From NCBI GenBank assembly GCA_944393505.1, contig CALYAK010000005.1, forward strand, positions 14,946-78,945: a DNA stretch of 64,000 nucleotides, written 5' to 3'. Below the pieces are notes generated by a model. That model ran no database searches. It had not been told where the DNA came from and saw only the letters and a program-made list of their open reading frames with translations. Origin of the DNA: an uncultured Clostridia bacterium (GTDB taxonomy: Bacteria; Bacillota; Clostridia; TANB77; CAG-508). Of the stretch, positions 10,543 through 34,597 are shown piece after piece. The first letter of the stretch is position 1. Every line of letters begins with the position of its first letter. Position numbers and translations under genes: made by a program.

Positions 10543-11664
10543 TTGATTAAGAGAACAAAGGAGGTAATTATGGTAGTTGATATGAAATATTTCGTAAGAG
10601 TTATCCGAAAACTAATACCGCTCATTTTATCCATTGTTGCCATTTATCTAGGGTTCCAATTAGCTGTTTTTTATTTGCCTTTTCTAATCGCTTTTATCTT
10701 ATCGATCTTAATTGAACCTGCCATTCGTTTCTTTATGAAAAAAACGCATTTAAAGAGAAAAACAAGTTCCATTATTGTATTTTTAATTGTTTTATCGATC
10801 TTAATTGGAATTATTACTTGGGCTATTATGTCCCTTGTATCAGAAGCTTCCAATTTGTTGGTTAACTTAAATCAATACTTTGAAAAGGGATCAGATTTTA
10901 TCAATAATCTTATGGCAAAGATTGATTTATCACGTTTCCAACTTTCAGATACTGTTGTTCAAACTTTGCAAAAAGCAGCAAATGATACTTTAGACCAAGT
11001 TTCGACATGGGCTAAAAATATCCTAATTCGAACAATTGATCAGGCATCCCAAATTCCATCAATTTTGATCTGTGTGGTCATTTCTTTTTTAGCCTTGTAC
11101 TTTATGTGCACGGACAAGGTATATATGATTGATCAACTTGAACACCATTTACCAAAGTTATGGGTGAAAAAACTAGGAATTCATATAAAGGCAATTTCAA
11201 AATCCTTAGGAGGGTATTTAAAAGCGGAATGTATTCTAATCTTCATATCCTTTGTAATTTCAATTATTGGACTTTATCTTTTTAAAATCATGGGATTCGG
11301 TGTTCGTTATCCGCTTTTGGCAGCACTTGGAATTGGGTTTGTTGATGCACTCCCAATTTTTGGATCTGGAACCGTTATGCTTCCATGGGCTGTTATATCT
11401 GCGTTTGATGGGAATTTATCCCTTGCTATTGCAATATTTGTACTATGGGTGATTATGTCCATTGTGCGTCAACTTTTAGAACCCAAATTAGTTAGTAAAC
11501 ATATTGGAATTCATCCGATTTTCACTTTAATTGCAATGTATACGGGATTTAAATTTATTGGTGTTATGGGATTATTATTAGGACCAATTGTTTTAATCAT
11601 CTTAAAAAACATCTATGCTACTCTATTAGAGCAGGGTGTAGCAAAAGCAATTTTTGAAAGGTAA
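10543..11664 (+). CDS. AI-2E (PerM) family transporter, YtvI-like sporulation integral membrane protein
   Basis: 373 aa polytopic membrane protein with an AI-2E-type C-terminal half (GFVDALPIFGSGTVMLPWA...HPIFTLIAMYTG). The true start may be an internal Met (10570 or 10585). Confidence 0.7.
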   Translation: MIKRTKEVIMVVDMKYFVRVIRKLIPLILSIVAIYLGFQLAVFYLPFLIAFILSILIEPAIRFFMKKTHLKRKTSSIIVFLIVLSILIGIITWAIMSLVSEASNLLVNLNQYFEKGSDFINNLMAKIDLSRFQLSDTVVQTLQKAANDTLDQVSTWAKNILIRTIDQASQIPSILICVVISFLALYFMCTDKVYMIDQLEHHLPKLWVKKLGIHIKAISKSLGGYLKAECILIFISFVISIIGLYLFKIMGFGVRYPLLAALGIGFVDALPIFGSGTVMLPWAVISAFDGNLSLAIAIFVLWVIMSIVRQLLEPKLVSKHIGIHPIFTLIAMYTGFKFIGVMGLLLGPIVLIILKNIYATLLEQGVAKAIFER

Positions 11665-11747: not shown

Positions 11748-12716
11748 ATGTTATGGGATTTTGTACTCATTCTACTAGGATTTGTATTTTTAATTAAAGG
11801 AGCCGATTTGTTGGTAAGAGCAGCTACCAGTATTGCTAAAAAGTTTGGTTTATCCGAGCTTCTAATTGGCTTAACCATTGTTGCGGTAGGAACATCTCTT
11901 CCAGAAATCTTTATTACAATTACTTCTGCAGTTGATGGCCATTCGGATTTAATTATCGGAAATGCAGTTGGAAGTTGTATTTGCAATTTTCTATTTGTGA
12001 TTGGAGTTACGAGTCTATTCAGACCAATTAAATTGGATAAACGAATTGTCAATCGCCATTTACCAATCGGAATTATTGCAATGATATTGCTTCTATTTTT
12101 TGGGAATACCAATCAATTAGGTGATGTTCATGTAATTACGAGAGGGCAGGGAGCTTTCCTAATTCTATGTATAATTCTCTATATTATTTATACAATTTTT
12201 GAAGAACAACAACTCAAAAACAAAAAAATCGATCAGGAAATTATTAATGATGTAAAAGACAAAGATAAGTATGCAACGCGTACGATTATAATTTATATGA
12301 TCCTTGGTATTCTTGGACTAAAATTTGGTTCTGATTTTGTTGTAGATCATTCATTAGAAATTGCAAGAACTTTTGGCTTATCAGAGCAATTCTTAGGAAT
12401 GACGATCATCGCAGTAGGAACCGCATTACCAGAAATTATAACGGGGATTATTGCAGCTCGAAAAAATGAAACAGATCTATTAATTGGAAATATTTCTGGT
12501 TCCAATATTTTGAACCTATGCTTGTTAATCGGTTTAGGTGCGATGATCCAACCACTTACTTTTTCGACTGAATTTAATAGCAGTATTCTCATATTGATTG
12601 CAACAACCGTATTTCTACAACTTGTAGCAACCATGAGTGAGAAAAATGAATTAGATAAAAAAAGAGGAATTTTGCTCATTGTGGTATATTTCATTTATCT
12701 CTTTAGTATCGCCTAA
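11748..12716 (+). CDS. Ca2+/Na+ antiporter (CaCA/YrbG family)
   Basis: Two alpha-repeat signatures (GTSLPEIFITI.. and GTALPEIITGI..). The start is moved to the ATG at 11748 (MLWDFVLILLG), which has an AAGGAG RBS. Confidence 0.8.
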   Translation: MLWDFVLILLGFVFLIKGADLLVRAATSIAKKFGLSELLIGLTIVAVGTSLPEIFITITSAVDGHSDLIIGNAVGSCICNFLFVIGVTSLFRPIKLDKRIVNRHLPIGIIAMILLLFFGNTNQLGDVHVITRGQGAFLILCIILYIIYTIFEEQQLKNKKIDQEIINDVKDKDKYATRTIIIYMILGILGLKFGSDFVVDHSLEIARTFGLSEQFLGMTIIAVGTALPEIITGIIAARKNETDLLIGNISGSNILNLCLLIGLGAMIQPLTFSTEFNSSILILIATTVFLQLVATMSEKNELDKKRGILLIVVYFIYLFSIA

Positions 12717-12861
12717 TCTCTCCTTTAAACCTCTCAAAAGTAGGGATTACTAGACTTTTAACCTGTTTTGTGGTATAATAAAAGATGACCGATATGGTTG
12801 TACTAATATTATAATGGCTCTTTTGAGCAAGTCCTAAAACAAGGGCGGAAAGGATTAGAAT

Positions 12862-13239
12862 ATGGATACCTATTGCTATCGGGAAATGATGGACAAAATC
12901 CGGGAAACCTCAAAGGATATCCGGATGATCGGCCTGTGGTTTCTCTTTGGAGAGAAAGTTGAGCTCTGCTCGGATTCTTCCGAAGAGAAGCATGACAAAG
13001 AGATGTTCGAGCAGCTTTTGATCCACGATCCTGCTGCAGCCCCGCTTTTCCGGGAGCTTTCGGACTATTCTCCGTGTGCTCAGCACATTCACTTCTACTA
13101 TTCGGAGACCAAGCCGGCTGCCGCTGATCAGATCAACCCTTTGCGCGATCAGAAGACTTTCGCAGTTGAGGGAAGCGAGTATTCCTTCCTTCTGACAAAA
13201 GAAGCGGACCGCACCACGAAGATCGTTTTCTGGAAGTGA
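12862..13239 (+). CDS. Hypothetical protein in a compositionally foreign (GC-rich) patch
   Basis: 125-aa ORF with G/C-ending codons (ccg, ctg, gag, aag, gcc), unlike all neighbours. GGAAAGGA RBS. An extended -10 (tgtggtataat) lies ~85 nt upstream and a strong hairpin lies downstream. No family recognised. Confidence 0.5.
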   Translation: MDTYCYREMMDKIRETSKDIRMIGLWFLFGEKVELCSDSSEEKHDKEMFEQLLIHDPAAAPLFRELSDYSPCAQHIHFYYSETKPAAADQINPLRDQKTFAVEGSEYSFLLTKEADRTTKIVFWK

Positions 13240-13266
13240 TTCCATTTCGCAAACTAATCCAAGCAA

Positions 13267-13304
13267 GAGAAAACTCCAATCCCGAATGGGAGAGGAGTTT
13301 TCTC
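13267..13304. terminator. Hairpin between convergent genes
   Basis: 11-bp arms gagaaaactcc (13267-13277) and ggagttttctc (13294-13304), followed by ttt. Confidence 0.55.
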
Positions 13305-13325
13305 TTTGTCTGTTCTTTTGACTTT

Positions 13326-13871
13326 TTAAAGAATCGTAGAAGTTGGGATAAGATCATCGGTAGGAGGATAAACATATTCATCATTTGGTTTTTCTGCCTC
13401 TTGGATAGCAGTAATCTTTAAAACTGGTATTTCTCCATGATAGTCTCCTTTTACAATGGTTCCTTCTACTTCTACCCAGTTAAAATCCTTAAATTTATAG
13501 GCTATATCAGATTCACACAAAAATCCAACAACAACCGTCTGAAAATCAGAACTAATGACCATATTTCGTGCTAGTACAAAATTCTTTTCATTAAAATCTG
13601 ATAAACGATAGACATAACCGGTGAAGTGAATTTTTTGTCCAATATACTCATCTAAATGATCATGAACGATTTTTAAAACATCAGTATAATTATCACTCGT
13701 TACTTCACACATAGAATCGTCGGTACAAGTATCTCCATTTACAAAAAATAGATCAGTATGAAAAAATTTCGTACAAACAAAAATGAGGAGAATTGCAAGA
13801 AGTATAATGCCAATCGTAAATCCAATTCTTTTTAATCGTTTCGAGTTAATTTTTAAGTTACAGATAAACAT
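13326..13871 (-). CDS. Membrane-anchored hypothetical protein (possibly the DUF1980/TIGR03943 C-terminal type)
   Basis: 181 aa. Single N-terminal TM helix (IGFTIGIILLAILLIFVC). The family assignment is only a weak resemblance. Confidence 0.4.
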   Translation of the reverse strand: MFICNLKINSKRLKRIGFTIGIILLAILLIFVCTKFFHTDLFFVNGDTCTDDSMCEVTSDNYTDVLKIVHDHLDEYIGQKIHFTGYVYRLSDFNEKNFVLARNMVISSDFQTVVVGFLCESDIAYKFKDFNWVEVEGTIVKGDYHGEIPVLKITAIQEAEKPNDEYVYPPTDDLIPTSTIL

Positions 13872-14060: not shown

Positions 14061-16817
14061 ATGGGAAAATTTTTTAAGACATACAGTGAGCGAGAAGTAA
14101 AACGTGTTATGCCAATCATCCAAAAAATCAATAGTTTAGAAGAAGAAATATCCAAATTATCGGATGAAGAATTAAGAGGAAAAACAATAGAATTCCGAAA
14201 AGAATTGAAAGATGGCAAAACACTAGATGATATATTACCAGAAGCTTTCGCCGTTGTGCGTGAAGCTTCCAAAAGAGTAATAGGCTTAAGACACTTTGAT
14301 GTACAATTAATTGGTGGTATTGTTTTACATCAAGGTAGAATTGCCGAGATGAAAACAGGTGAAGGAAAGACTTTAGTTGCAACCCTTCCAGTTTATCTAA
14401 ATGCTCTTACTGGAGAAGGTGTTCATGTTATTACGGTTAATGATTACTTAGCTAAGAGAGATAGCGAATGGATGGGAAAAGTCTATCGTTTCTTAGGCTT
14501 AACCGTTGGTCTTGTTATCAGTGGTATGAATCCAAAACAAAAACAAGAAGCATATAACTGTGATGTTACCTATGGTACCAACAATGAATTTGGATTCGAT
14601 TATTTAAGAGACAATATGGTTATTTATAAAAATCAATTAGTACAAAGAAAATTGCATTATGCAATTGTGGACGAGATTGATAGTATTTTAATCGACGAGG
14701 CTCGTACACCATTAATTATCTCTGGACGAGCAAATAAATCTTCCGATTTATACAAAAAAGCAGATTCTTTTGTTCGTAAATTAACACCAAAAGTAATTGT
14801 AGAAGAAAATGTAAAGGATTTCGAACAAGCAGAAAGCTTAGAGGAATATGATTATGTTGTTGATTTAAAAGCTAAATCTGCAACTTTAACACAAAAAGGT
14901 ATTAAAAAAGCAGAACAAGAATTTAAATTGGAAAATTTCAATGATATTGAAAACTCAGAATTAGTTCACAATGTAAATCAAGCATTACGTGCACATGGTA
15001 TCATGAAAAAAGATATCGACTATATTGTAAAAGATGGAGAAGTCTTAATTGTTGATGAATTCACTGGAAGAATTATGGTTGGTAGACGATATAATAATGG
15101 ATTACACCAAGCAATTGAAGCAAAAGAACATGTTCATATTGCAGATGAATCGAAAACACTTGCTACCATAACATTCCAGAACTATTTCCGTATGTATGAA
15201 AAATTATCTGGTATGACTGGTACTGCTATGACAGAAGAAGCAGAATTCGAAGAAATCTATAAATTAGATGTAATTGAAATTCCAACCAACAAACCAATGA
15301 TCCGTGACGATCAAGCAGATACGATCTATAAAAATGAAGCAGCAAAATATCGTGCAATCATTAAAGACGTAAAAGCTTGTCACGAAAAAGGTCAACCAGT
15401 CTTAGTTGGTACCGTTTCGATTGAAAAATCAGAAAAGTTAAGTTCTCTTTTGAAAAAAGAAGGAATTAATCATGAAGTATTAAATGCTAAGAACCACGAA
15501 AAAGAAGCTGAAATTGTTGCACAAGCTGGTAAATTTGGTGCTGTTACGATTGCAACCAACATGGCTGGACGTGGTACCGATATTATGCTAGGTGGTAACG
15601 CAGAATATTTAGCAAAACAAGAAATGAGAAAGCTAAAATATTCGCAAGAACTAATTGAGCAAGCAACAGCTTTTAATGAGACAGATGATATGGAAATTTT
15701 AGATGCTCGTGCAAAATTTAAAGAATTAGAAGCAAAATTCAATGAAAAAATCCAAGAAGAAAAGCAAAAAGTAATTGATGCTGGTGGACTAAGAATTATT
15801 GGTACAGAAAGACACGAATCTCGAAGAATCGATAACCAATTGAGAGGTAGAAGTGGGCGTCAAGGAGATCCAGGAAGTTCTGAATTCTATATTGGATTAG
15901 ATGATGATTTGATGAAAATCTTCGGAGGAGATGCGATTACTCGAGTATATAACACTTTAGGTGCAGATGAAGATATGCCACTTTCTGCTAAAATGCTTTC
16001 GAAATCAGTAGAAGCTGCCCAAAGAAAAATTGAAAGTAGAAACTTTAGTATTCGTAAACATGTCCTACAATATGATGATGTTATGAATTCCCAAAGAGAA
16101 ATTATCTATGCAGAAAGAAGACAAGTTCTAGATGGAGAAGATTTAAAAGATAAAATCAAGAATATGGTAGATTATGTTGTCGAACAAATTGTTTCTTCTC
16201 ATGTAGAACCAGATGGCAATTTAAATACGGAAACTTTAGCAGAAGATGTAAGTGCAACTTTAGGAATAATTGATGCAAAAACATTATTAAAAGAAAAAAC
16301 AAAACCAGAAACAGCAATGGAAACTTTAAAAGAAAAAGCTCATCAAATTTATGAAGATAAAGAAAAAGAATTTGGTGAACAAGACATGCGTGAACTTGAA
16401 AGAGTTGTTATGTTAAAAATCGTAGATCAACGTTGGATGGATCACATTGATAGCATGGACGAATTAAAAGATGGTATTGGTCTTCGTGCTTATGGACAAA
16501 AAGATCCAGTTGTTCAATATCGTTTAGAAGGTTTTGATATGTTTGACCAAATGATTCATGACATTAAATTTGATGTTGTTCGCTTTATGCTAAATGCAAG
16601 AAAAAGAGAAGGCGGAATCGAACGTACAGAAACCGCAAAAGTTACCAATGCAGCATTAGAAGATACAGCAATCAATTTAGTAGATGGAAATATTTCTGAA
16701 AAAGAAGGTGGAATGAAGAAGACAATTGTTAATCAAGAACCAAAGATTGGAAGAAATGATCCTTGTCCATGTGGTTCAGGAAAGAAATATAAGAATTGTT
16801 GTGGAAAGAACGCATAG
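14061..16817 (+). CDS. secA: Preprotein translocase ATPase SecA
   Basis: 918 aa. MKTGEGKTL Walker A, DEID/DEAR motifs, [10 protein letters not shown], and a C-terminal zinc-binding tail [17 protein letters not shown]. Confidence 0.97.
16768..16806 (+). repeat. Direct repeat copy 1 (inside the secA 3' end): catgtggttcaggaaagaaatataagaattgttgtggaa
   Basis: 39/39 nt identical to 20687-20725. Confidence 0.95.
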
Positions 16818-16915
16818 CACCTGCGTTTAAAGCATTTTACAAAAATCGAAAATTTGGTGACAAAATTAGGTTGTCACTCAAACTTAAATAAAGAATTTAT
16901 AAAAGCTTAAAATTA

Positions 16916-16955
16916 AAGAAGTGTAACCTAAATAAAATGGGTGACACTTCTTTTT
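16916..16955 (+). terminator. Rho-independent terminator about 100 nt after the secA stop, lying inside the islet
   Basis: Arms aagaagtgt (16916-16924) and acacttctt (16944-16952), then a T run. Confidence 0.6.
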
Positions 16956-17007
16956 ATATTAAATTTATAAATGAGATAATTAAAAAATATTGTTGGGAGA
17001 AATTATA

Positions 17008-18441
17008 ATGGACATAAATGATGAAGCTAATAAGTTTAAAGAAATATTTGAAAATGTGGTAAGGGATGGATTAAAAAAGGCAAAGATAAATATTGAAAAT
17101 GGATCATCTATAGATCAATTTTATGAATATCCAATTTACGAAAGTGATTTTGAAAAAAGCAAAATGCCAAATTTTCGTACAACATTTCTTTCGTTCTTGA
17201 ACGATAATGTGGAATATAGAGACTATTCAAGCTTATTTAGAAAATATGTAACAAAAAAAGATGAAAAAATAGATATTGGAAATTTAAACGGAATAAATAA
17301 GTTTATATCTCTTGTTGAAGATAATACAAAATTAAAAGAAATGTTTTACATTAGAGAGTCTGATTTAAAATATTCTTTTTTGTATATGTTTATATCAGAC
17401 TTCATTGGAAAGTATATTTACAAATATGGGACAAGATATAACAAATCAAATTATAATAAACTACTGTCTCCAGTATTAAATTGTTTATATTCAGAACAAA
17501 TAAAATTAAATATAATTGTTCCTATTTTATTATTGCAGTTTGAACAGAATTCATATAAAATAAACGAAAATACAAAAATTATTAAAATGAACAAAGAAAT
17601 ACAACTTTCACGATACAAGATCGGAACAGATAGAGGGACATTTGAAAAGATTGTAAAAGGTTGTGCAACTCACGCCCTTGCTTTAGATGGCTACACACTA
17701 CAATACCCATCAAATAATTATTGGAATATTACAGATGCACTAAGCAGATATAATTCTTTTCCTTTATTCATAATAAATAGTTTTTTTATTTCATTGTTTC
17801 TTGAAACAGGTATATATAATGGATATGAACAAGTTATTGCAATACCAAAAAACTGGATGTTGTATATTCCAGAAGGCAACTTAATTGAAATGCATGGTAC
17901 AACTGTCAATATGTATCCAATATACTTAGAGAAAGGAACTTGGAATAATGAAGTACCAAAAATAAGTATAGTACAATTAAAAAAAGTTAAAAAAATATTT
18001 AATAATGTTATTAATTGTAATAACAAACAAATTGAGATGGCAATAGATAGGTTGATTAGAGCATTAGTTAGAGATAATAAGGAAGATGCTTTTTTAGATA
18101 TTTTAATAGGAATTGAAATATTATTGACTGATAATGAAAAAACAGAAGTAACATATAAATTAGCAATAAGAATATCATTCATTATGAATAGGTTAAATAA
18201 AGACATTGATTACAGAAAAGTGCTAAAAGATTTATATGCATATAGGTCGGCAATTGTGCATGGAAGTATAAATAAACAGAAATTTTCTTATTCAAAATAT
18301 TTAAATAAAAGTTGTTATAATATTGCATTAGATATTTTTAGTAAAATTTTAAAAGAAATAATATTAGACAATAAATTAATAACTAGTAAAAATATCCCTC
18401 TAGAGATTGACAATATGATAATTAATAGTTTCGTTAAATAG
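17008..18441 (+). CDS. Apea-like HEPN domain protein (predicted RNase), islet gene A
   Basis: ATG at 17008 with a GGGAG RBS (the track ORF begins at a TTG at 16990). The C-terminal ~130 aa read ..AFLDILIGIEILLTDNEKTEVTYKLAIRISFIMNR...LKDLYAYRSAIVHGS, with Rx4H (R codon 18244-18246, H codon 18259-18261). The N-terminal ~340 aa are unrecognised. Confidence 0.6.
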   Translation: MDINDEANKFKEIFENVVRDGLKKAKINIENGSSIDQFYEYPIYESDFEKSKMPNFRTTFLSFLNDNVEYRDYSSLFRKYVTKKDEKIDIGNLNGINKFISLVEDNTKLKEMFYIRESDLKYSFLYMFISDFIGKYIYKYGTRYNKSNYNKLLSPVLNCLYSEQIKLNIIVPILLLQFEQNSYKINENTKIIKMNKEIQLSRYKIGTDRGTFEKIVKGCATHALALDGYTLQYPSNNYWNITDALSRYNSFPLFIINSFFISLFLETGIYNGYEQVIAIPKNWMLYIPEGNLIEMHGTTVNMYPIYLEKGTWNNEVPKISIVQLKKVKKIFNNVINCNNKQIEMAIDRLIRALVRDNKEDAFLDILIGIEILLTDNEKTEVTYKLAIRISFIMNRLNKDIDYRKVLKDLYAYRSAIVHGSINKQKFSYSKYLNKSCYNIALDIFSKILKEIILDNKLITSKNIPLEIDNMIINSFVK

Positions 18442-18490
18442 AATTAATAGAGAGAAAAATGATATTTTATTTGATAAGAGGAGTCAAATT

Positions 18491-20428
18491 ATGAGCAATG
18501 AGTATAAACAAATAACAATATTTGAAGAAGACTATATTCAAAGGACTACTGGAACGGTTACCCAAAAACCAGATAATGCACTAACCGAACTTATAGCTAA
18601 TTCCTGGGATGCTGGTGCAAAACTAGTAGAGATTACAATTCCGTTAAAAGAGCATGAAAAGTTGATAATCCAAGACGATGGAATAGGAATGTCAGAAGCA
18701 GAATTTAGTCAAAGATGGTTAACTTTAAGCTATAATAGAGTAAAAAATCAAGGAATCGATGTTGAATTTCCTCCAGAAGTAAAAGACATAAAACGAAAAG
18801 CTTATGGGCGAAATGGAATAGGAAGACATAGTATGTTTTGTTTTTCTACTTCTTACCATATAGATACATGGAAAAATGGAGAATGCTTTAGTTGTGACGT
18901 GGATTTATCATCTGGATCAACTCCTTTTAAAATATACAATGTAAAGAAAACAAAAAAAGAAGGACATGGAACAAAACTTTCAACATTTGTGACTCAAAAT
19001 TTGCCAGATGTAAAAACGATTACAGATGTATTATCTGCAAGGTATTTGTTTGATCCAAGTTTCATTGTAAAAATAAACAATGTTATAATAGATTTATCTA
19101 ATCATAGTGGCTTACAGAAACAGGAAGAGATTGTACTGAGCAACGGAATAAAGTTAAAAATTTATATAATTGATTCTAATAAAACAGCTAAAAAGTCAGT
19201 TTATCATGGCATTGCTTTTTGGGTAGGTAAAAGATTAGTAGGTGAACCATCTTGGGAACTAGGTGATAGGATGATAAGAGATGGCAGAACTCAAATGGCT
19301 AAAAGATATACTGTGATTGTGCAAACAGATGATATGTATGATGATGTATTACCTGACTGGACAGCATTTAAAAAGAATGATAGAACTAAAGAACTATTTG
19401 AAAAAGTTGCTATATATGTGAATAATTATATAAGAGAAATTAGTAAAGAAAAAAGGCAAGAAACAAAATTAGAAATCGTTAGAAATAGAATTAATGAAAT
19501 TAAAGAATTGAATAAATCCTCTCAAAGTGAAGTGGCAGAATTTATAGATAATATTGTGGAAGAACAACCAGATTTATCTATAGAAACAGTTGATTTAGTA
19601 GTAGAAACCATGATTAATATTCAAAAAGCAAGAACTGGACAAGATTTATTAGAAAAATTGTCAAAATTCTCTGAAGATGATATAGAAACATTAAATAATA
19701 TTCTTGAAAGTTGGAATGTAAAAGATATACAATTAACATTAGACACAATAGATAAAAGGGTTTTAGTTGTAGAAGCAATAGAAAGGTTATGCTCTGATAG
19801 GCATACGGATGAACTTCATACGTTACATCCACTTGTTGCACAAGCTAAATGGTTATTTGGACCAGAATATGATTCGGAAATGTATACATATAATAAGCGA
19901 CTAAGTACTATTGTAAAAGAAGTTTTTAAAAGTATAAAATACAAAGAACTTGAGGAACCAAATAAAAGACCAGATTTAGTAATATTTGAAGAATCCGTAA
20001 TTGCTCCATATGGTTTTGAAGATTGGAATGACGAAATAAGTTTAAATGAATATAGAAAAATATTAATAATTGAATTGAAAAAAGGATTTTTTACAATAGA
20101 ACAAAATGAAATAAATCAGGCTATGACATATGTTAATGCATTATATAATTCTTCTTCATTGCCTTCTAAACCTACAATTTATGCATATGTTGTAGGGGAT
20201 AAAGTGTCTAATAATATTTCTAGAAATGTTAAAATGGATGAGACAAAACAAATATGTGCATGTACTTATTTAGAATTAGTAAGTACAGCTAAGAAGAGGT
20301 TATTCAAATTAAGAGAAACATTAAATGAGAGATACGAAAAAATGTCTACGGAAAGTATTGTAGATAAAGTTTTAAAAGAACCAAAACAATTAGAAATAAC
20401 AAAGAATAATTTAAAAGAAAGAGATTAA
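18491..20428 (+). CDS. GHKL (HATPase_c_3/MORC-like) ATPase fused to a PD-(D/E)xK, Shedu/DUF4263-like nuclease domain, islet gene B
   Basis: 645 aa with a GAGGAG RBS. Bergerat-fold motifs: ELIANSWDAGA (N box), DDGIGMS (G1) and YGRNGIGRHS (G2). The central region is helical and charged. The C-terminus has LHPLVAQAKWLFGPEY..KRPDLVIFEE..ILIIELKKG..QAMTYV (D495, E528, K530). Confidence 0.65.
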   Translation: MSNEYKQITIFEEDYIQRTTGTVTQKPDNALTELIANSWDAGAKLVEITIPLKEHEKLIIQDDGIGMSEAEFSQRWLTLSYNRVKNQGIDVEFPPEVKDIKRKAYGRNGIGRHSMFCFSTSYHIDTWKNGECFSCDVDLSSGSTPFKIYNVKKTKKEGHGTKLSTFVTQNLPDVKTITDVLSARYLFDPSFIVKINNVIIDLSNHSGLQKQEEIVLSNGIKLKIYIIDSNKTAKKSVYHGIAFWVGKRLVGEPSWELGDRMIRDGRTQMAKRYTVIVQTDDMYDDVLPDWTAFKKNDRTKELFEKVAIYVNNYIREISKEKRQETKLEIVRNRINEIKELNKSSQSEVAEFIDNIVEEQPDLSIETVDLVVETMINIQKARTGQDLLEKLSKFSEDDIETLNNILESWNVKDIQLTLDTIDKRVLVVEAIERLCSDRHTDELHTLHPLVAQAKWLFGPEYDSEMYTYNKRLSTIVKEVFKSIKYKELEEPNKRPDLVIFEESVIAPYGFEDWNDEISLNEYRKILIIELKKGFFTIEQNEINQAMTYVNALYNSSSLPSKPTIYAYVVGDKVSNNISRNVKMDETKQICACTYLELVSTAKKRLFKLRETLNERYEKMSTESIVDKVLKEPKQLEITKNNLKERD

Positions 20429-20686
20429 ATTGACAAATATTATTTTACATGATAACATTATTTTGTAAAATGTAATAAGTTTTGCTTATTTAGTTGTTTT
20501 ACAAAAAAATGGTAAATAAAAATATGTTGGCGACATTGTTGCCAATTTGTTGCTACAATATAAAAAAAGATAATTAGTATAATACAATAAATACTATATG
20601 TACCTTTTTATATAAATTCTTTAAATTAAGAAATACTAATAATATAGATAATATTGTATATACTAATAATACTTAGCTTTCCACTA

Positions 20687-20725
20687 CATGTGGTTCAGGA
20701 AAGAAATATAAGAATTGTTGTGGAA
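20687..20725 (+). repeat. Direct repeat copy 2 (orphan secA 3'-end duplicate)
   Basis: Identical to 16768-16806. In the secA frame it reads [15 protein letters not shown], with a stop at 20733-20735. Confidence 0.95.
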
Positions 20726-20826
20726 GAAATCAGTAATTTTAACTTGATGGAATTAAATTATAAAGATGTCGACATTCATTGTTGGCATCTTATTCTTTTA
20801 TTAGGATTTAGTAAAGGAAAGATAAT

Positions 20827-20922
20827 ATGGTAAGTGTAAGAAAAAGAGGAAAGGTTAATGAATATTGTCTTGAAATTGCACCAGTATATGATAAAAGAAT
20901 AGCAATAAAAAATATAATTTGA
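20827..20922 (+). pseudogene. Probable remnant of a tyrosine integrase N-terminus (arm-binding/AP2-like domain)
   Basis: 31 codons, MVSVRKRGKVNEYCLEIAPVYDKRIAIKNII*, with an AAGGAAAG RBS. The M.S.RKRGK...Y pattern is typical of phage/ICE integrase N-termini. It sits ~100 nt from repeat copy 2. Confidence 0.3.
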
Positions 20923-21059
20923 TATAATATAGAAAACATATAATATGAGTATTATTAGTTTATAAAACTATATACTAATCTTTTGTTTTAATAATAGTTA
21001 AGTAACTATGTAAAAATTACATAGAGATTAATTAATGCTATATGAAAAGGAGATTGTCT

Positions 21060-21419
21060 ATGAGCATTTTAGGAAATATATTATGGTTCATCTTTGGAGG
21101 TCTCTTAAGTGGACTTTCTTGGATATTATCTGGAGTAATTTGGTGCATTACTATTGTCGGTATACCTTATGGTAGGCAATGTTTTAAGTTTGCATCAATG
21201 TCATTTGCTCCGTTTGGAAAAGAAATAGAATATGGAGGTGGAGTTCCATCATTATTTGCAAATGTAATATGGATCATCCTCTTTGGTATTCCAATGGCTC
21301 TCGAAAATTTAATTTTTGGCTGTTTATGGTGCATAACCATAGTAGGAATACCATTTGGCTTGCAATTTTTCAAAATTGCAAAACTTTCTCTTGCACCTTT
21401 TGGAGCCAAGATAGTTTAA
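21060..21419 (+). CDS. YccF domain-containing inner membrane protein (DUF307)
   Basis: Two WCITIVGIP(Y/F)G repeats. ATG at 21060 with an AAAGGAG RBS. Confidence 0.8.
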   Translation: MSILGNILWFIFGGLLSGLSWILSGVIWCITIVGIPYGRQCFKFASMSFAPFGKEIEYGGGVPSLFANVIWIILFGIPMALENLIFGCLWCITIVGIPFGLQFFKIAKLSLAPFGAKIV

Positions 21420-21755
21420 GTACTTATAAAAAAACATCAATTTAAGATTTGTGTAATTTTCGAGAGAGAATCATTAGAGATAGTGATTCTCTTTTAGTCT
21501 TATAATATTAGCAAATATTTTTTAAGATATGTAGTTAAATAGTAGAATAATTAAAAGATATATGTTATTCTAGTGACGGAGTAATAAAAAAATAAATGAG
21601 GGAAAAATATATTAGTAAATAAATTTTCTGTATGGTAAAATATTTATAGTAAGACCTAGGTAAGGTAGCTAAATGCTAAGCGTATGTTAAGTACGCTGCC
21701 TCCTAGGCATTTTTATTATAACCGTAATCCAAAAGGTGACATAGTAAGATTAGTA

Positions 21756-21786
21756 CTCTTATCCGTTATTTGGATAAGAGTTTTTT
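21756..21786 (+). terminator. Strong orphan rho-independent terminator
   Basis: Arms ctcttatcc (21756-21764) and ggataagag (21772-21780), then T6. It lies 340 nt after yccF and 170 nt before the GNAT gene, so no annotated CDS ends here. Confidence 0.6.
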
Positions 21787-21958
21787 GTTACTGTATAATT
21801 ACATATTATCATATAAACGTATCTTGTCTGCTCTAAAAAGAGGGAGGTGTACAAACGATAAAGAAATGATTCTTTAATCGCTATTAAATTAATCAAATAA
21901 CCTGAAAAATGAAAAAATTTACGATATAATTAGTAAAAAAGATTAAGGAGATGAGTTG

Positions 21959-22441
21959 ATGAAAATAATCGAATATAACCCAAATTATTTAGAAGATGTA
22001 AGAAATTTACTAACAGAGTTAGAAGAATACCTTGTTTCAATTGATCAAGACCATTTGGATCAAGTTCATCCAGATTATTATGAAAAAATGGCACTCGTCG
22101 ATTTGGAAGAAATCAAAAAGAATCATGGTAAATGCTATTTAGCGATCGAAGAGGACAAGATAATTGGATTAATTATGGGAATGATACCAGACTATACGCA
22201 ATATGACTATTTAGATTACAAGTGCCCGAAAAAAGGAGTTATCACAGAGCTAATTGTTACTGCTCAAACAAGAAGCAAAGGAATTGGAAATGCTTTAATC
22301 GAACCAATGGAAGGATATTTTAAGGAAAATCATTGCGAATATGTTTTTGTGGATGTATTTGCCTATAATCAAAATGCCATCAATTTTTATGAAAAGAAAG
22401 GCTATCATCCAAGAATGTATACAAACATCAAAAAAATATAG
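21959..22441 (+). CDS. GNAT family N-acetyltransferase
   Basis: About 160 aa. Acetyl-CoA binding motif (VTAQTRSKGIGNALI) and C-terminal NQNAINFYEKKGY. Confidence 0.8.
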   Translation: MKIIEYNPNYLEDVRNLLTELEEYLVSIDQDHLDQVHPDYYEKMALVDLEEIKKNHGKCYLAIEEDKIIGLIMGMIPDYTQYDYLDYKCPKKGVITELIVTAQTRSKGIGNALIEPMEGYFKENHCEYVFVDVFAYNQNAINFYEKKGYHPRMYTNIKKI

Positions 22442-22549
22442 CCTTATACTTTAACTTAATCGAAAACACTTGACTTAAAGTATACTTTAAGTTGTATAAA
22501 ATAAGAAGAAAAAGAAACTAGATAAATAGAAGAAGCGGAGGGATTCTTT

Positions 22550-22849
22550 TTGAAAACATTGTATTTTGATTGCTCAAGTGGAATTAGTGGAAATATGACA
22601 TTAGGAGCATTATTAGAAATTGTTGGAGATGAAAATTACTTATTAGAAGAATTAAAAAAATTAAAAGTCGATGGATATAAAATCGAAATATCGAAAAAAG
22701 TGAAAAATGGTATTACTGGAACCTATGTCGATGTTATTTTAGAAGAAGAACATCACCATCATGAACATGATTCGCACGAGCATGAGCATGAGCACCATCA
22801 TCATCATCTTCATATGAAAGTAGAGCAATTTACAGAAAAAAAGAAATAG
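22550..22849 (+). pseudogene. larC: N-terminal fragment of nickel-insertion protein LarC (DUF111)
   Basis: MKTLYFDCSSGISGNMTLGALLEI plus a His-rich stretch (HHHHEHDSHEHEHEHHHHH), then a stop at 99 aa. Full-length LarC is about four times longer. No continuation is visible in any frame and there is no larB/larE nearby. Confidence 0.6.
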
Positions 22850-23028
22850 TTACTTTAAAATTGAAAAGAGAAAGGGAAAAATATGAAATATTTTATCCTA
22901 TACCTTCTATGTTCCTATCTGGATTTTTAATTGATTTCATGGGAATTACAGTATCGTAAAATTTGTTATATAGCCCAATAGCATCCTAAGTATAGAATAG
23001 ACGAAAAAGCCTATTCTTTTGTTTTTCG

Positions 23029-23057
23029 TTGACATATTTTAGGAAAATCGATATAAT
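23029..23057 (+). promoter_or_regulatory. Consensus sigma-A type promoter upstream of prfB
   Basis: TTGACA (23029-23034), a 17-nt spacer, then TATAAT (23052-23057). Confidence 0.65.
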
Positions 23058-23121
23058 CTTATAGTAAACTTATAAGAATTTAATTAAATTCTATAGAAAA
23101 AACTGTAAAGGAGTAGTACAC

Positions 23122-24238
23122 GTGATCAGTTTAGAAGAAAATCAACAAATACTTATCAATCTAAAAGAAAAATTAACCGATATTGGAGACTCTCTTTGAC
23201 GTTGCTAATTTAGAAGCTCAATTAAAAAAACTGGAAGCTCAAACTTTCGAGCCGAACTTTTGGGAAGACAGCAAAAAAAATGCGGGAATTTTGAAACAAA
23301 TTAATCAAATAAAAGGAAAAATCGAGCAATATAAAAAAGTAAAATCAGAGCTTGAAAGTGTATTAGAAATGAATGAGTTACTTTTAGCAGAACCAATGGA
23401 AGATATGCAGCAAGAAGTCTTTGACTCTACTAAAAAGTTAGAGAAAGCATTGGAAAAACTAGAAATTAGCACTTTACTTTCCGGAAAATATGATCAAAAT
23501 AATGCAATCATTACACTACATCCAGGAGCTGGTGGAACAGAAGCTCAAGATTGGGCAGAAATGCTTTATCGTATGTATACAAGATGGGCAAATGATAATG
23601 GATATACCGTAACAGAATTAGATTATCTAGATGGTGATGAAGCTGGATTAAAGAGTGTAACTGCTTTAATTTCTGGAGACTACGCTTATGGTTATTTAAA
23701 AGGGGAACAGGGAGTTCATCGTCTTGTGCGTATTTCTCCATTTGATGCGGGAGGAAGAAGACATACTTCCTTTGCTTCTTTGGAAGTGTTACCAGAAATT
23801 GCAGATGATATCGAATTAGAAATCAATCCAGATGATTTAAGAGTAGATACTTATCGTGCATCAGGAGCTGGAGGACAACATGTCAATAAAACTTCTTCTG
23901 CTGTTCGTATTACACACATTCCAACTAATATTGTTGTTAGCTGTCAATCCGAACGATCACAAATTCAAAATCGTGAGACAGCGATGAAGATGTTGAAATC
24001 TAAACTGTTGGATCTAAAAGAAAAAGAACAAAAAGATACAATAGAAGAATTGAAGGGAATCCAAATGGATATTGCTTGGGGAAGCCAAATTCGTTCGTAT
24101 GTTTTTTGCCCTTATACATTAGTAAAAGATCATCGAACCAATTATGAAGTTGGTAATGTGCAAGCTGTTATGGATGGAGATATCAATGGTTTTATTGATT
24201 CTTACTTAAAACTTCAAGCAAAAAAGAAGGAAGAGTAG
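23122..24238 (+). CDS. prfB: Peptide chain release factor 2, with programmed +1 frameshift
   Basis: GTG at 23122 with an AAAGGAG RBS. Frame 0 reads 25 codons, then CTT TGA C (TGA at 23197-23199) with an internal GGAG 6 nt upstream. The +1 frame from 23198 continues DVANLEAQL...SPFDAGGRRHTSFASLEV...SGAGGQHVNKT. Confidence 0.95.
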
Positions 24239-28502: not shown

Positions 28503-29462
28503 ATGAGTGAAAAAAGTAATGAAATTATTCTTTTCGAAAACCAAGAGGTTAAATTAGAAGTTAATTTAAAAGATGAAACTGTCTGGCTTAATAGACAGCA
28601 ATTAGCTAAATTATTTAACAGGGATATAAAAACTATCGGCAAACATATTAATAATGCTTTAAATGAAGAATTAAAAGATATTCCAACTGTCGCAAAATTT
28701 GCGACAGTTCAAACCGAAGGAAATAGGCGAGTAACTCGAAATATAGAATTCTACAATTTAGATATGATTTTAAGTGTTGGATATAGAGTAAAATCTGATA
28801 AAGGAATTGTTTTTAGACAATGGGCAACCAATGTATTAAAAGATTATACGCTAAAAGGATATGCCGTAAATCAAAAAAGATTAGAATACTTAGAAAAGAC
28901 AATAAAATTAATTGATATTGCCAATAGAATTGATACAAGATTAGAAGGAAATGATGCAAAAGAAATATTAAAAGTAATTGGTAATTACTCAAAAGCACTT
29001 GATCTACTTGATGATTATGACCATAGAACATTAAAGAAAATAGATGGAAATATAGACGAAAGAAAAATCGAATATAGTGAATGTATAAAAATTATAAACA
29101 AGCTTAGATTTAATGAGGGAAGTTCTTTGTTTGCAATAGAAAGAGATAGGGGATTAGAATCAATTATAGGAAATATTTATCAAAGTTTTGATGGAAAAGA
29201 TGTTTATAAAAGTATAGAAGAAAAAGGAGCCAACTTTTTATACTTAATCGTTAAAAATCATGTCTTTGCTGATGGGAATAAAAGAATTGCAGCAACTTTA
29301 TTTATATATTTTTTAAATTTTTATGGCATCTTATATAGAAATGAAAAACAAAGCATTGATAATAATACTTTAGCTGCGTTAACATTATTAATTGCGGAAT
29401 CAAATCCAAAAGAAAAAGAAGTACTTATAGATTTAGTTATGAATTTTTTAAACACTGATTAA
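28503..29462 (+). CDS. RhuM family virulence protein with a C-terminal Doc-type Fic domain
   Basis: The N-terminus reads LFENQEVKLEVNLKDETVWLNRQQLAKLF..DIKTIGKHI...VGYRVKSDKGIVFRQWATNVLKDY (RhuM). The C-terminus has HVFADGNKR (29259-29285), the Doc-like variant of the Fic motif. Confidence 0.8.
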   Translation: MSEKSNEIILFENQEVKLEVNLKDETVWLNRQQLAKLFNRDIKTIGKHINNALNEELKDIPTVAKFATVQTEGNRRVTRNIEFYNLDMILSVGYRVKSDKGIVFRQWATNVLKDYTLKGYAVNQKRLEYLEKTIKLIDIANRIDTRLEGNDAKEILKVIGNYSKALDLLDDYDHRTLKKIDGNIDERKIEYSECIKIINKLRFNEGSSLFAIERDRGLESIIGNIYQSFDGKDVYKSIEEKGANFLYLIVKNHVFADGNKRIAATLFIYFLNFYGILYRNEKQSIDNNTLAALTLLIAESNPKEKEVLIDLVMNFLNTD

Positions 29463-33595: not shown

Positions 33596-34597
33596 TTACT
33601 GATTATAATCTGCTAGTGGGTTATTTTCGACAGCGCTTCGTACTTGTTCATTACTAACATGGGTATAGATTTGCGTTGTTGCAATGGATTCATGTCCCAA
33701 AAGCTCTTGCAATGCACGAATATCGACATTGCCATACTGATACATCAATGTGGCTGCAGTATGTCTTAATTTATGAACCGAATACTTTCGAATATCCAAT
33801 CCTGCTCGTAAAAGCTCTTGTTTTACAATGTTTTGAACATTTCGATTACTAATACGTTTACGTCTTTCGCTCACAAATAAAGGATCTTTATCTTCTGCGT
33901 CTTTGATGACTTCTTTTGATCGTACTAATAGATATTCGTTAATTGCTTTCATACAAGCTTTATTTAAGTAGATTGTTCTTTCTTTATCTCCTTTACCAAT
34001 TACCGTCATTTTTTCTTCTGAAAAATCAATATCTTTTAAATTAATGCCAACAAGTTCTGATAAACGCATACCACAATTTAAAAATAAGGTAAGGATCGCA
34101 TAATCTCTTTCTGCATTACGATCTGTTTCTGGTTTAACTGTATCTAATAATTTCCTACTATCTTCTAAAGATAGATATTTTGGCATTCTTTTACCCAGTT
34201 TTGGTGACTCTAGGTTTTGAGCAGGATTAATTTCCAATCGATTTGCTTTTGCTGTTAAATATTGAAAGAAGATACGAATGGAAGACACTTTTCTAGCTCG
34301 TGTGGTAGGTTTGCTATCATAAACACGTTCTAAGTAGCTTAAAAACGCATGGATATCTTGCAATCTCACTCGTTTAATCACATCAAAACTCATATTGGTT
34401 ACGTAATGAAGATCCATATCCTTAATTTCTTTTTCATTTTTCAAATCCACGATACGATATTGATAAAGTAAAAATTTGAAAAAGTGAACGAGATCATAGT
34501 TATATTCTTTTATGGAATTCTTTGAACGATTTTGAATCGAGGCAGAATAGTCTAAAAATTCATTTAAAAATTCTGGGTTATCACGGCGATCGATCAA
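33596..34597 (-). CDS. Tyrosine recombinase, XerC/XerD family
   Basis: 333 aa. R..HKLRHTAAT...LGHESIATTQIYTHV catalytic box, and an N-terminal SAM-like domain. Confidence 0.85.
   Translation of the reverse strand: MIDRRDNPEFLNEFLDYSASIQNRSKNSIKEYNYDLVHFFKFLLYQYRIVDLKNEKEIKDMDLHYVTNMSFDVIKRVRLQDIHAFLSYLERVYDSKPTTRARKVSSIRIFFQYLTAKANRLEINPAQNLESPKLGKRMPKYLSLEDSRKLLDTVKPETDRNAERDYAILTLFLNCGMRLSELVGINLKDIDFSEEKMTVIGKGDKERTIYLNKACMKAINEYLLVRSKEVIKDAEDKDPLFVSERRKRISNRNVQNIVKQELLRAGLDIRKYSVHKLRHTAATLMYQYGNVDIRALQELLGHESIATTQIYTHVSNEQVRSAVENNPLADYNQ

Follow-up and report, generated by a model that had tools for sequence, protein, structure and literature searches.

A 39-bp direct repeat at the 3' end of secA in an uncultured gut Clostridia bacterium probably marks two tandem, decayed integrase elements

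An exact 39-bp direct repeat, one copy of which lies in the 3' coding end of secA, was analysed in a 64,000-nucleotide stretch of contig CALYAK010000005.1 (hereafter the window), which belongs to an uncultured gut Clostridia lineage. Very probably, the repeat is a pair of attachment (att) junctions of tyrosine-integrase elements that target the zinc-finger codons of secA, with two such elements in tandem, the first (element 1) lacking its integrase gene and the second (element 2) truncated. On comparison with related loci, the segment 16775–20686 appears to be one element that has kept both of its arms (P' on the left and P on the right) and two cargo genes, its integrase gene having been cleanly deleted. 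For element 2, the simplest reading is that only the left end is left (20694–20898), comprising a secA-like tail ending in GRNQ, a terminator and 24 integrase codons, with truncation at about 20898. SecA tails are named below by their last residues before the stop codon.

The 39-mer, CATGTGGTTCAGGAAAGAAATATAAGAATTGTTGTGGAA, was found exactly twice, both times on the + strand (16768–16806 and 20687–20725), as a preliminary description of this DNA had reported. No further copy was present in the window with up to three mismatches allowed, and none of 100 dinucleotide-preserving shuffles of the window gave a match to the 39-mer. Copy 1 lies inside secA, in which the working SecA tail ends in GKNA. 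Copy 2 can be read in frame to GRNQ and a stop codon at 20734–20736, as had been described, but stop codons lie upstream and it is therefore not part of a gene. Between the copies we found, in order, a 164-nucleotide non-coding segment with two hairpins, an open reading frame (ORF) of 477 amino acids (p477), an ORF of 645 amino acids (p645) and a 258-nucleotide AT-rich non-coding arm. The GC content of this island was 23–31%, compared with 31–35% for secA and prfB. Metagenome assemblies do break or mis-join at this place (loci L007–L010 end 5–265 bp after the secA stop codon, and L005 may be chimeric), and the preliminary description had allowed for an assembly artefact. Because four independent assemblies from different samples (L001–L004, 99.2–100% identical) carry both copies in the same layout, an artefact of this kind is ruled out. 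A chance or coding-constraint likeness of unrelated sequences fares no better, since copy 2 is non-coding and coding constraint cannot maintain it, the shuffles gave no match, and the same architecture was observed in other species; this explanation, in either form, is hardly credible.

A complete counterpart of element 1 was identified in a species other than that of the window (L134–L139). The order in these loci was secA (919 amino acids), CATGTGG, the GKNA tail with two hairpins, the integrase gene (int) in two parts of 172 and 215 amino acids, p477, p645, the P arm, CATGTGG and a distal copy of the secA end. The two hairpins were the same as those at 16807–16965 of the window. Identity between the window and the intact element was 89.8% over 16971–20729 and 76% over the region including secA, and the arm carrying GKNA and the two hairpins was 86–91% conserved where secA was 76–78% conserved. 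Near 16962–16985, the window ceased to match the sequence upstream of int and began to match the junction between the 3' end of int and p477. Because this switch sits where the integrase is missing, the window element can be described as the intact element minus its integrase gene. Three further loci agreed with this alignment: L133 was 98.8% identical to the window over 16971–20584, L130 and L131 were about 89.5% identical over the same region, and in all three the int stop codon lies 30 nucleotides ahead of the p477 ATG, and 16971 is the first window position that they match. No integrase was found between the repeats of the window. Since the intact element has the same arm in front of its integrase, both the GKNA tail and the secA terminator are taken to be element-borne, which bears out the earlier suggestion that they are island-encoded. 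The last 14 codons and the stop codon of secA, from 16775 onward, would thus come from the inserted element, and 16775–16806 appears to be a surrogate coding sequence that the element carries.

The claim that the repeat reflects a site-specific integration event in the 3' end of secA was likewise supported by relatives of the window that have an integrase and equivalent repeats at this site. An integrase gene was found directly 3' of secA in L021, L022, L023, L029, L033, L043 and L051, the L022 protein having domains PF00589 and PF14659. Repeats equivalent to those of the window were found in L015, L017, L033, L109 and L114, and the loci with the full pattern of secA, tail, terminator, integrase, cargo, AT-rich arm and second secA end include L015, L033, L109 and L114. 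One proximal tail went together with 93–95% identical integrases in L015, L092, L109 and L114, the distal tails being different. Because the proximal tail tracks the integrase, it would be carried by the element as its P' arm, and the source of the distal tail would be either the host or the following element.

Metagenomes were then scanned for TCCACTA plus CATGTGG followed by degenerate zinc-finger codons, which gave 26 metagenome loci with a conserved P arm and CATGTGG. In these loci, about 60 nucleotides before CATGTGG were highly conserved, and the next four bases and the tail (GK, GKNA, GKNQ, GRNQ or GRNA) varied. The two ends of the single insertions L109 and L033 had only CATGTGG in common and differed immediately after it; the stretch common to the two ends of L015 was TGTGGTTCGGG. 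Because the ends of L109 and L033 share nothing more, strand exchange is placed within or next to CATGTGG, and the recombination core is probably this 7-bp motif, which corresponds to the P-C-G codons. We infer that the crossover core of copy 1 is CATGTGG at 16768–16774, and the exact cleavage positions would lie at or beside it. The two copies of the 39-mer had been described as att-like sites; the core lies within the repeat, and the remaining 32 bp are better explained as parallel surrogate coding sequence, judging from L109, L033 and L005. L005 followed the window as far as 20729 at 99.85% identity, then read AAGTGG...GRNA with two stop codons, and ran straight into a divergent prfB. The right junction of L005 (16051–16464, corresponding to window 20689 onward) departs right after CATGTGG, and the start of its prfB is only distantly related to that of the window. 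L005 represents either real strain variation, with element 1 abutting a native tail, or a chimeric contig of 4x coverage, and either way it displays a junction of P arm, CATGTGG, host tail and prfB. A scan of viral contigs with the junction pattern gave no match and no support for a phage.

Both junctions of element 1 keep CATGTGG and the full P' and P arms, and the right site is a hybrid of P, core and the P' arm of element 2 (P-core-P'2). Copy 2 is followed by a terminator hairpin of its own (20763–20791, −19.1 kcal/mol, z = −4.5) and then by a 31-codon ORF that starts with MVSVRKRGKVNEYCLEIAPVYDKR and shows 14–17 identities in 24 positions to integrase N-termini. The best matches of this stub were to integrases of an unsplit subtype (L022, 17/24; L021 and L028, 16/24 each), compared with 14/24 for L134. 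Pfam gave no match to the 31-residue ORF even at E = 10, and the homology rests on the alignments of integrase N-termini. The stub lacks the catalytic domain of tyrosine recombinases (PF00589, R..H-x-x-R..Y), only 24 codons of the N-terminal, arm-binding region being left, and the ORF appears to be an integrase remnant, not a working member of the family. Tails ending in GRNQ precede integrases in L023, L029, L051, L095 and L114, and GKNQ does so in L021. The ancestral secA tail and the right junction of element 2 are not in the window, and no third copy (degenerate ones included) or second P arm was found between 20726 and prfB.

The preliminary description had offered copy 2 as a possible ancestral tail of secA. 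Under a single simple insertion of this kind, an element at 16807–20686 would have integrated once, the GRNQ tail of copy 2 would be the displaced ancestral tail, and native chromosome would follow. Two foreign-looking genes do lie between direct repeats, GRNQ works as a SecA tail in the related species L023, L029 and L040, and the P arm is immediately left of copy 2, as a right junction should have it. The recognisable integrase N-terminus 90 nucleotides past copy 2 does not fit this account, and GRNQ and GKNQ are exactly the tails that precede integrases of that subtype; those of L023, L029 and L051 themselves precede integrases, and so would be element-borne too. Furthermore, the native neighbour prfB is reached only 2.4 kb on, past yccF, a GNAT gene and a larC fragment. 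A single insertion is thus unlikely, and copy 2 is better interpreted as a left arm that belongs to a second element, now truncated.

A second alternative concerns the left side, where the GKNA tail and the terminators would be native, a block at 16984–20893 would have entered past the terminator by illegitimate or homology-facilitated recombination, and copy 2 would be an intact attP. The extra DNA of the window relative to L012, a sister species, is exactly 16984–20893; L030 has GKNA plus about 30 nucleotides; and L095 joins a window-type P arm to GRNQ and an integrase, so that P-core-P'2 resembles a single attP. However, L134–L139 place the arm with GKNA and two hairpins between secA and the integrase of an intact p477–p645 element in a different species, and the conservation of this arm above that of secA indicates that it travels with the element. 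In addition, the cargo of the window joins the arm at the exact spot of the missing integrase, and the stub past copy 2 resembles another integrase subtype than the element's own. This alternative is therefore very unlikely. L012 was also considered as an empty site with a native GKNA tail, and was rejected as such: its P' arm (window 16807–16960) is 91% identical to that of the window by blastn, whereas secA is 78% identical overall and 61% identical at third codon positions, and in L134 the arm travels with the integrase. Because sharing of the P' arm and yccF is more recent than that of the core gene secA, these segments of L012 are regarded as scars of mobile DNA, and its arm in particular would be such a scar.

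Returning to two elements in tandem, the proposed history is as follows. The attP of the circular element would consist of the P arm ending in TCCACTA, the core CATGTGG and the P' arm, the last being a surrogate of about the last 14 secA codons with stop codon and terminator; the integrase gene would come next in intact elements. Recombination in or beside CATGTGG (the P-C-G codons of CPCGSG) would splice the P' arm onto secA, the zinc finger of SecA would stay complete, host and element each contributing two cysteines, and the displaced host tail would land at the far end of the element. Element 1 would have lost its integrase gene by clean deletion, and the right junction of element 2 would have been lost, together with the ancestral secA tail, in a deletion, although the order of these events is a reconstruction. 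The 39-bp identity would then be made up of the 7-bp core and 32 bp of surrogate coding sequence common to both P' arms.

Several observations weigh against this history. Neither an empty site in a genome of the same species nor a circle junction was found. Among related genomes, which the preliminary description had proposed to compare, L012 and L030 carry GKNA without cargo, and L012 has both hairpins as well, which could make GKNA native. The P' arm of the intact element differs from that of the window at 8 of 32 positions beyond the core; because the two window copies are identical over those 32 bp, either a crossover further right or gene conversion between them has to be assumed. L012 and the window have the same right-hand breakpoint (about 20898), which a history of tandem insertion plus deletion does not by itself account for. 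L005 may be a chimera, as stated above. Finally, no integrase of the secA-targeting family was found anywhere in the 64-kb window, so that element 1 is presumably immobile today.

Table 1. Features of the secA–prfB region of the window, and integrase split sites in related loci
Feature	Position	Strand	Basis
secA, 918 amino acids	14061–16817	+	ORF, Pfam SecA domains, tail analysis
Repeat copy 1, putative left junction (attL)	16768–16806	+	Exact repeat; comparison with L109, L033 and L005
Putative P' arm of element 1: codons to GKNA and stop, hairpin 16853–16882, secA terminator 16915–16953 and T-run	16775–16965	+	L012 and L134–L139 homology, folding
Probable integrase-deletion scar	16962–16985	+	Alignment with intact element
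p477, cargo gene, 477 amino acids	17008–18441	+	ORF, small family
p645, cargo gene, 645 amino acids	18491–20428	+	Pfam, NCBIfam
Putative P arm of element 1: hairpin 20526–20546, AT-rich repeated motifs, ends in TCCACTA directly before the core	20429–20686	+	Arms of L095, L110 and L111
Repeat copy 2, putative junction of P arm (element 1) and P' arm (element 2), core CATGTGG at 20687–20693	20687–20725	+	Exact repeat, tandem junctions elsewhere
Putative P' arm of element 2: surrogate codons to GRNQ, stop 20734–20736, terminator hairpin 20763–20791	20694–20826	+	Tails before integrases in relatives
31-codon ORF; codons 1–24 (to 20898) resemble a tyrosine integrase N-terminus, remainder unrelated	20827–20922	+	Matches to integrase N-termini
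Probable accreted material between islands and prfB	20923–23122	+	Pfam
yccF	21042–21419	+	Pfam
GNAT gene	21956–22441	+	Pfam
larC N-terminal fragment, truncated	22550–22849	+	Pfam
prfB start	23123		Pfam
Integrase split sites	L015 12540–12560; L033 11655–11680; L134 6885–6905; also L043, L091, L092, L109, L114, L122–L125

The arms of element 1 are well preserved (Table 1). The terminator hairpin, which is followed by a T-run, had a folding energy of −16.8 kcal/mol (z = −4.6), and a near-identical P arm was found in L095, L110 and L111. Element 1 carries no transfer genes and no prophage genes or genes of integrative and conjugative or integrative and mobilizable elements (ICEs or IMEs) by Pfam; the only match was HATPase_c_3 in p645, and nothing was obtained for p477. 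A single other recombinase was seen in the window, a Xer-like tyrosine recombinase of 333 amino acids (33596–34597, − strand) with 22% identity to the L022 integrase; it does not belong to the secA-targeting family.

For the first cargo gene, p477, no Pfam, NCBIfam, PADLOC or PDB sequence match was obtained. Its family is small (13 clusters), and a homologue was found as cargo at the secA site in L122, which has the order secA, int, Fic and p477 homologue. An R-x4-H (HEPN-like) motif in the C-terminal part of p477 was seen by eye only and is not claimed. The N-terminus of the second cargo protein, p645, is a GHKL ATPase (HATPase_c_3, PF13589, 2e-17), and a PD-(D/E)xK-like motif was seen by eye in its C-terminal half. 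It matched NF050001 (BbrUII/HgiDII restriction enzyme) at 2e-27 over residues 31–210, that is, in the N-terminal 180 residues only, and its score of 95.9 bits is far under the curated cut-off of 550, which places it outside that family. It belongs to a family of GHKL proteins of about 640 amino acids with 1733 matches among 8,000 candidates scored; homologues adjoin genes for a C5 methylase and for type I restriction–modification, and the window has no methyltransferase gene. We regard p645 as a candidate restriction-like defence protein. An obligate pairing of p477 with p645 was considered and rejected, as homologues of p645 were found where p477 is absent, and those of p477 were found with neighbours of the Fic or SLFN/AlbA type.

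Cargo differed among elements of this family, and included a restriction–modification pair with a C5 methylase, RhuM, a YhcG/DUF1016 nuclease, Fic and DUF6602; a role of the cargo in defence is plausible. Cargo differed even within the species of the window, as in L006 (12890–14056), where a RhuM-family gene replaces p477 and p645 right after an identical arm with GKNA and the terminator. RhuM is a recurrent cargo at the secA site (L024, L035, L038, L039, L094 and L105). A RhuM-like gene also lies about 8 kb downstream in the window (28503–29462), with 46% identity over 125 amino acids.

Beyond the stub, the homology to L012 upstream of yccF begins at 20898. Because prfB closely follows secA in more distant Clostridia (L030, L052 and L062), the whole interval from 16.8 to 23.1 kb is considered extra DNA. 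The yccF gene was 90% identical in nucleotide and 92% identical in amino acid sequence to that of L012, while secA was 78% identical, which suggests that yccF too may lie in recently exchanged DNA of the secA–prfB gap. A homologue of the GNAT gene follows secA in L099. The larC fragment is a 99-residue ORF with a His-rich end that matches only the first 85 of 375 positions of the nickel-insertion (LarC) model, and is probably a truncated remnant. A search of 12–26 kb against Rfam gave just one match, which was sub-threshold: a DUF3800-I RNA at 21620–21721, inside the 0.5 kb of non-coding DNA that separates yccF from the GNAT gene (33.5 bits, gathering score 44.2, E = 0.064). Upstream of secA, GC content rose to 0.40 at 12500–13500, compared with about 0.32 in the flanks; this segment includes an ORF of 125 amino acids without a Pfam match (12862–13239), upstream of a DUF1980 gene.

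Elements at the secA site were repeatedly found in tandem, with arrays in L114, L092, L095 and L017 and with P-core-P'-int junctions in the first three. In L017, three copies of the secA end (at 10970, 12511 and 13906) bound two single-gene cassettes without integrases, which encode a HAD/2H-phosphoesterase-like protein of 365 amino acids and a membrane protein of 390 amino acids; this layout resembles an integron-like array. No clear distal copies were found in the two-integrase loci L023 and L029. L022 (9361–15454) holds a far larger element at the secA site, in which, judged from the sequences, an unsplit integrase is accompanied by ParA/ParB-like genes, a surface protein of 915 amino acids and a sortase-like gene. 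Because of these genes, the secA-site integrase family would also serve plasmid-like or ICE-like elements.

Integrases of the element 1 subtype were always split into an N-terminal ORF of about 170 amino acids and a C-terminal ORF of about 195–216 amino acids. The split occurs at a conserved run of eight A residues with the slippery heptamer A_AAA_AAA, and a −1 shift restores alignment with unsplit homologues. A database search gave 1739 homologues of the C-terminal half, and among the 120 matches listed all were 193–259 amino acids long. The split looks like programmed frameshifting or transcriptional slippage; a literature search on programmed frameshifting in tyrosine integrases gave no relevant paper. 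More tentatively, and as something we consider possible but not probable, the secA–prfB gap may be an integron-like capture platform on which one- or two-gene defence cassettes with full P-CATGTGG-P' bounds would be site-specifically stacked, swapped and lost. Cassettes without an integrase would be moved in trans by co-resident integrases, the dosage of which would be set by the A_AAA_AAA −1 frameshift, with a DNA-binding-only N-terminal protein as the product otherwise.

These results imply that the last 14 codons of an essential gene, with two of the four cysteines through which the SecA metal-binding domain binds zinc, would have been supplied by mobile DNA, probably twice, and that the 3' end of secA is an integration hotspot in uncultured gut Clostridia. 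Because small defence-like cassettes gather there, this hotspot should be a useful place to search for new anti-phage genes, for example p477 and p645, the latter a stand-alone protein of GHKL nuclease-like type. In annotation, the distal 'secA fragment' should carry the label of an att junction, the 31-codon ORF that of an integrase remnant and 16.8–23.1 kb that of accreted mobile DNA. Being a decayed relic, the window copy is itself of limited interest; the family, with its A_AAA_AAA frameshift and integron-like stacking of cassettes, merits more follow-up.

Insertion into the 3' coding end of a core gene, with a surrogate end carried by the element, is also known for the lambdoid phage 21 and for e14 at the 3' end of icd in Escherichia coli, where a tyrosine integrase is used and the displaced native end is orphaned. 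Those elements are, however, a prophage or prophage remnants, and their surrogate is considerably longer, whereas the secA elements have a surrogate of about 14 codons plus a terminator, a core of about 7 bp and one or two defence-like genes.

A close parallel to the decay and the tandem arrangement is given by cis-mobilizable elements (CIMEs) and tandem accretion in islands of the ICESt1/ICESt3 type at the 3' end of fda in Streptococcus thermophilus (Pavlovic 2004, Bellanger 2011, reviewed in PMC5704250). The steps set out in that review are integration, decay to a CIME and accretion, a CIME being an element whose integration genes are gone and whose att sites are kept. From its gene content, element 1 would match this definition, having lost its integrase and carrying no transfer genes by Pfam. 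As at fda, the site is the 3' end of a housekeeping gene, the integrase is lost, the putative att sites are kept and a second element stands in tandem at the same site. The differences are that the target is secA, that the elements are tiny (1.5–5 kb) and without conjugation or mobilization genes, and that the neighbour of element 1 is only a 24-codon stub.

Related, too, are integrase-associated defence islets and hotspots, in which satellite-like or integrative islands carry anti-phage systems (compare the ciMGE survey PMC10201445). The secA site resembles these in being a fixed hotspot with small, variable, defence-like cargo beside a site-specific integrase; it differs in that the anchor is the 3' end of a protein-coding gene, not a tRNA or tmRNA gene, and in that cassettes without integrases each have a full P-core-P' junction (L017). 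Likewise, p645 shares an N-terminal GHKL ATP-binding domain, and homologues beside DNA methyltransferases, with the BbrUII/HgiDII type II enzymes and the MORC/MutL-like GHKL ATPases, but unlike them it scores below the cut-off, has no methyltransferase in the window and shows its nuclease motif by eye only. Of the marks of an integrative island, the window element has att repeats at both ends and a surrogate gene end, but not its own integrase. It is not an integron, as the integrases are phage-type with an arm-binding N-terminus and the cassettes are bounded by P arms of about 250 nucleotides and by P' arms that copy the gene end, not by attC; the likeness lies only in the logic of the cassette array. 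A literature search for secA as an att site found no paper that describes it, which is no proof of novelty. Set beside these systems, the mechanism is ordinary, and what is new is the target, that is, the zinc-finger codons of SecA, together with the very small cassettes and the cassette arrays.

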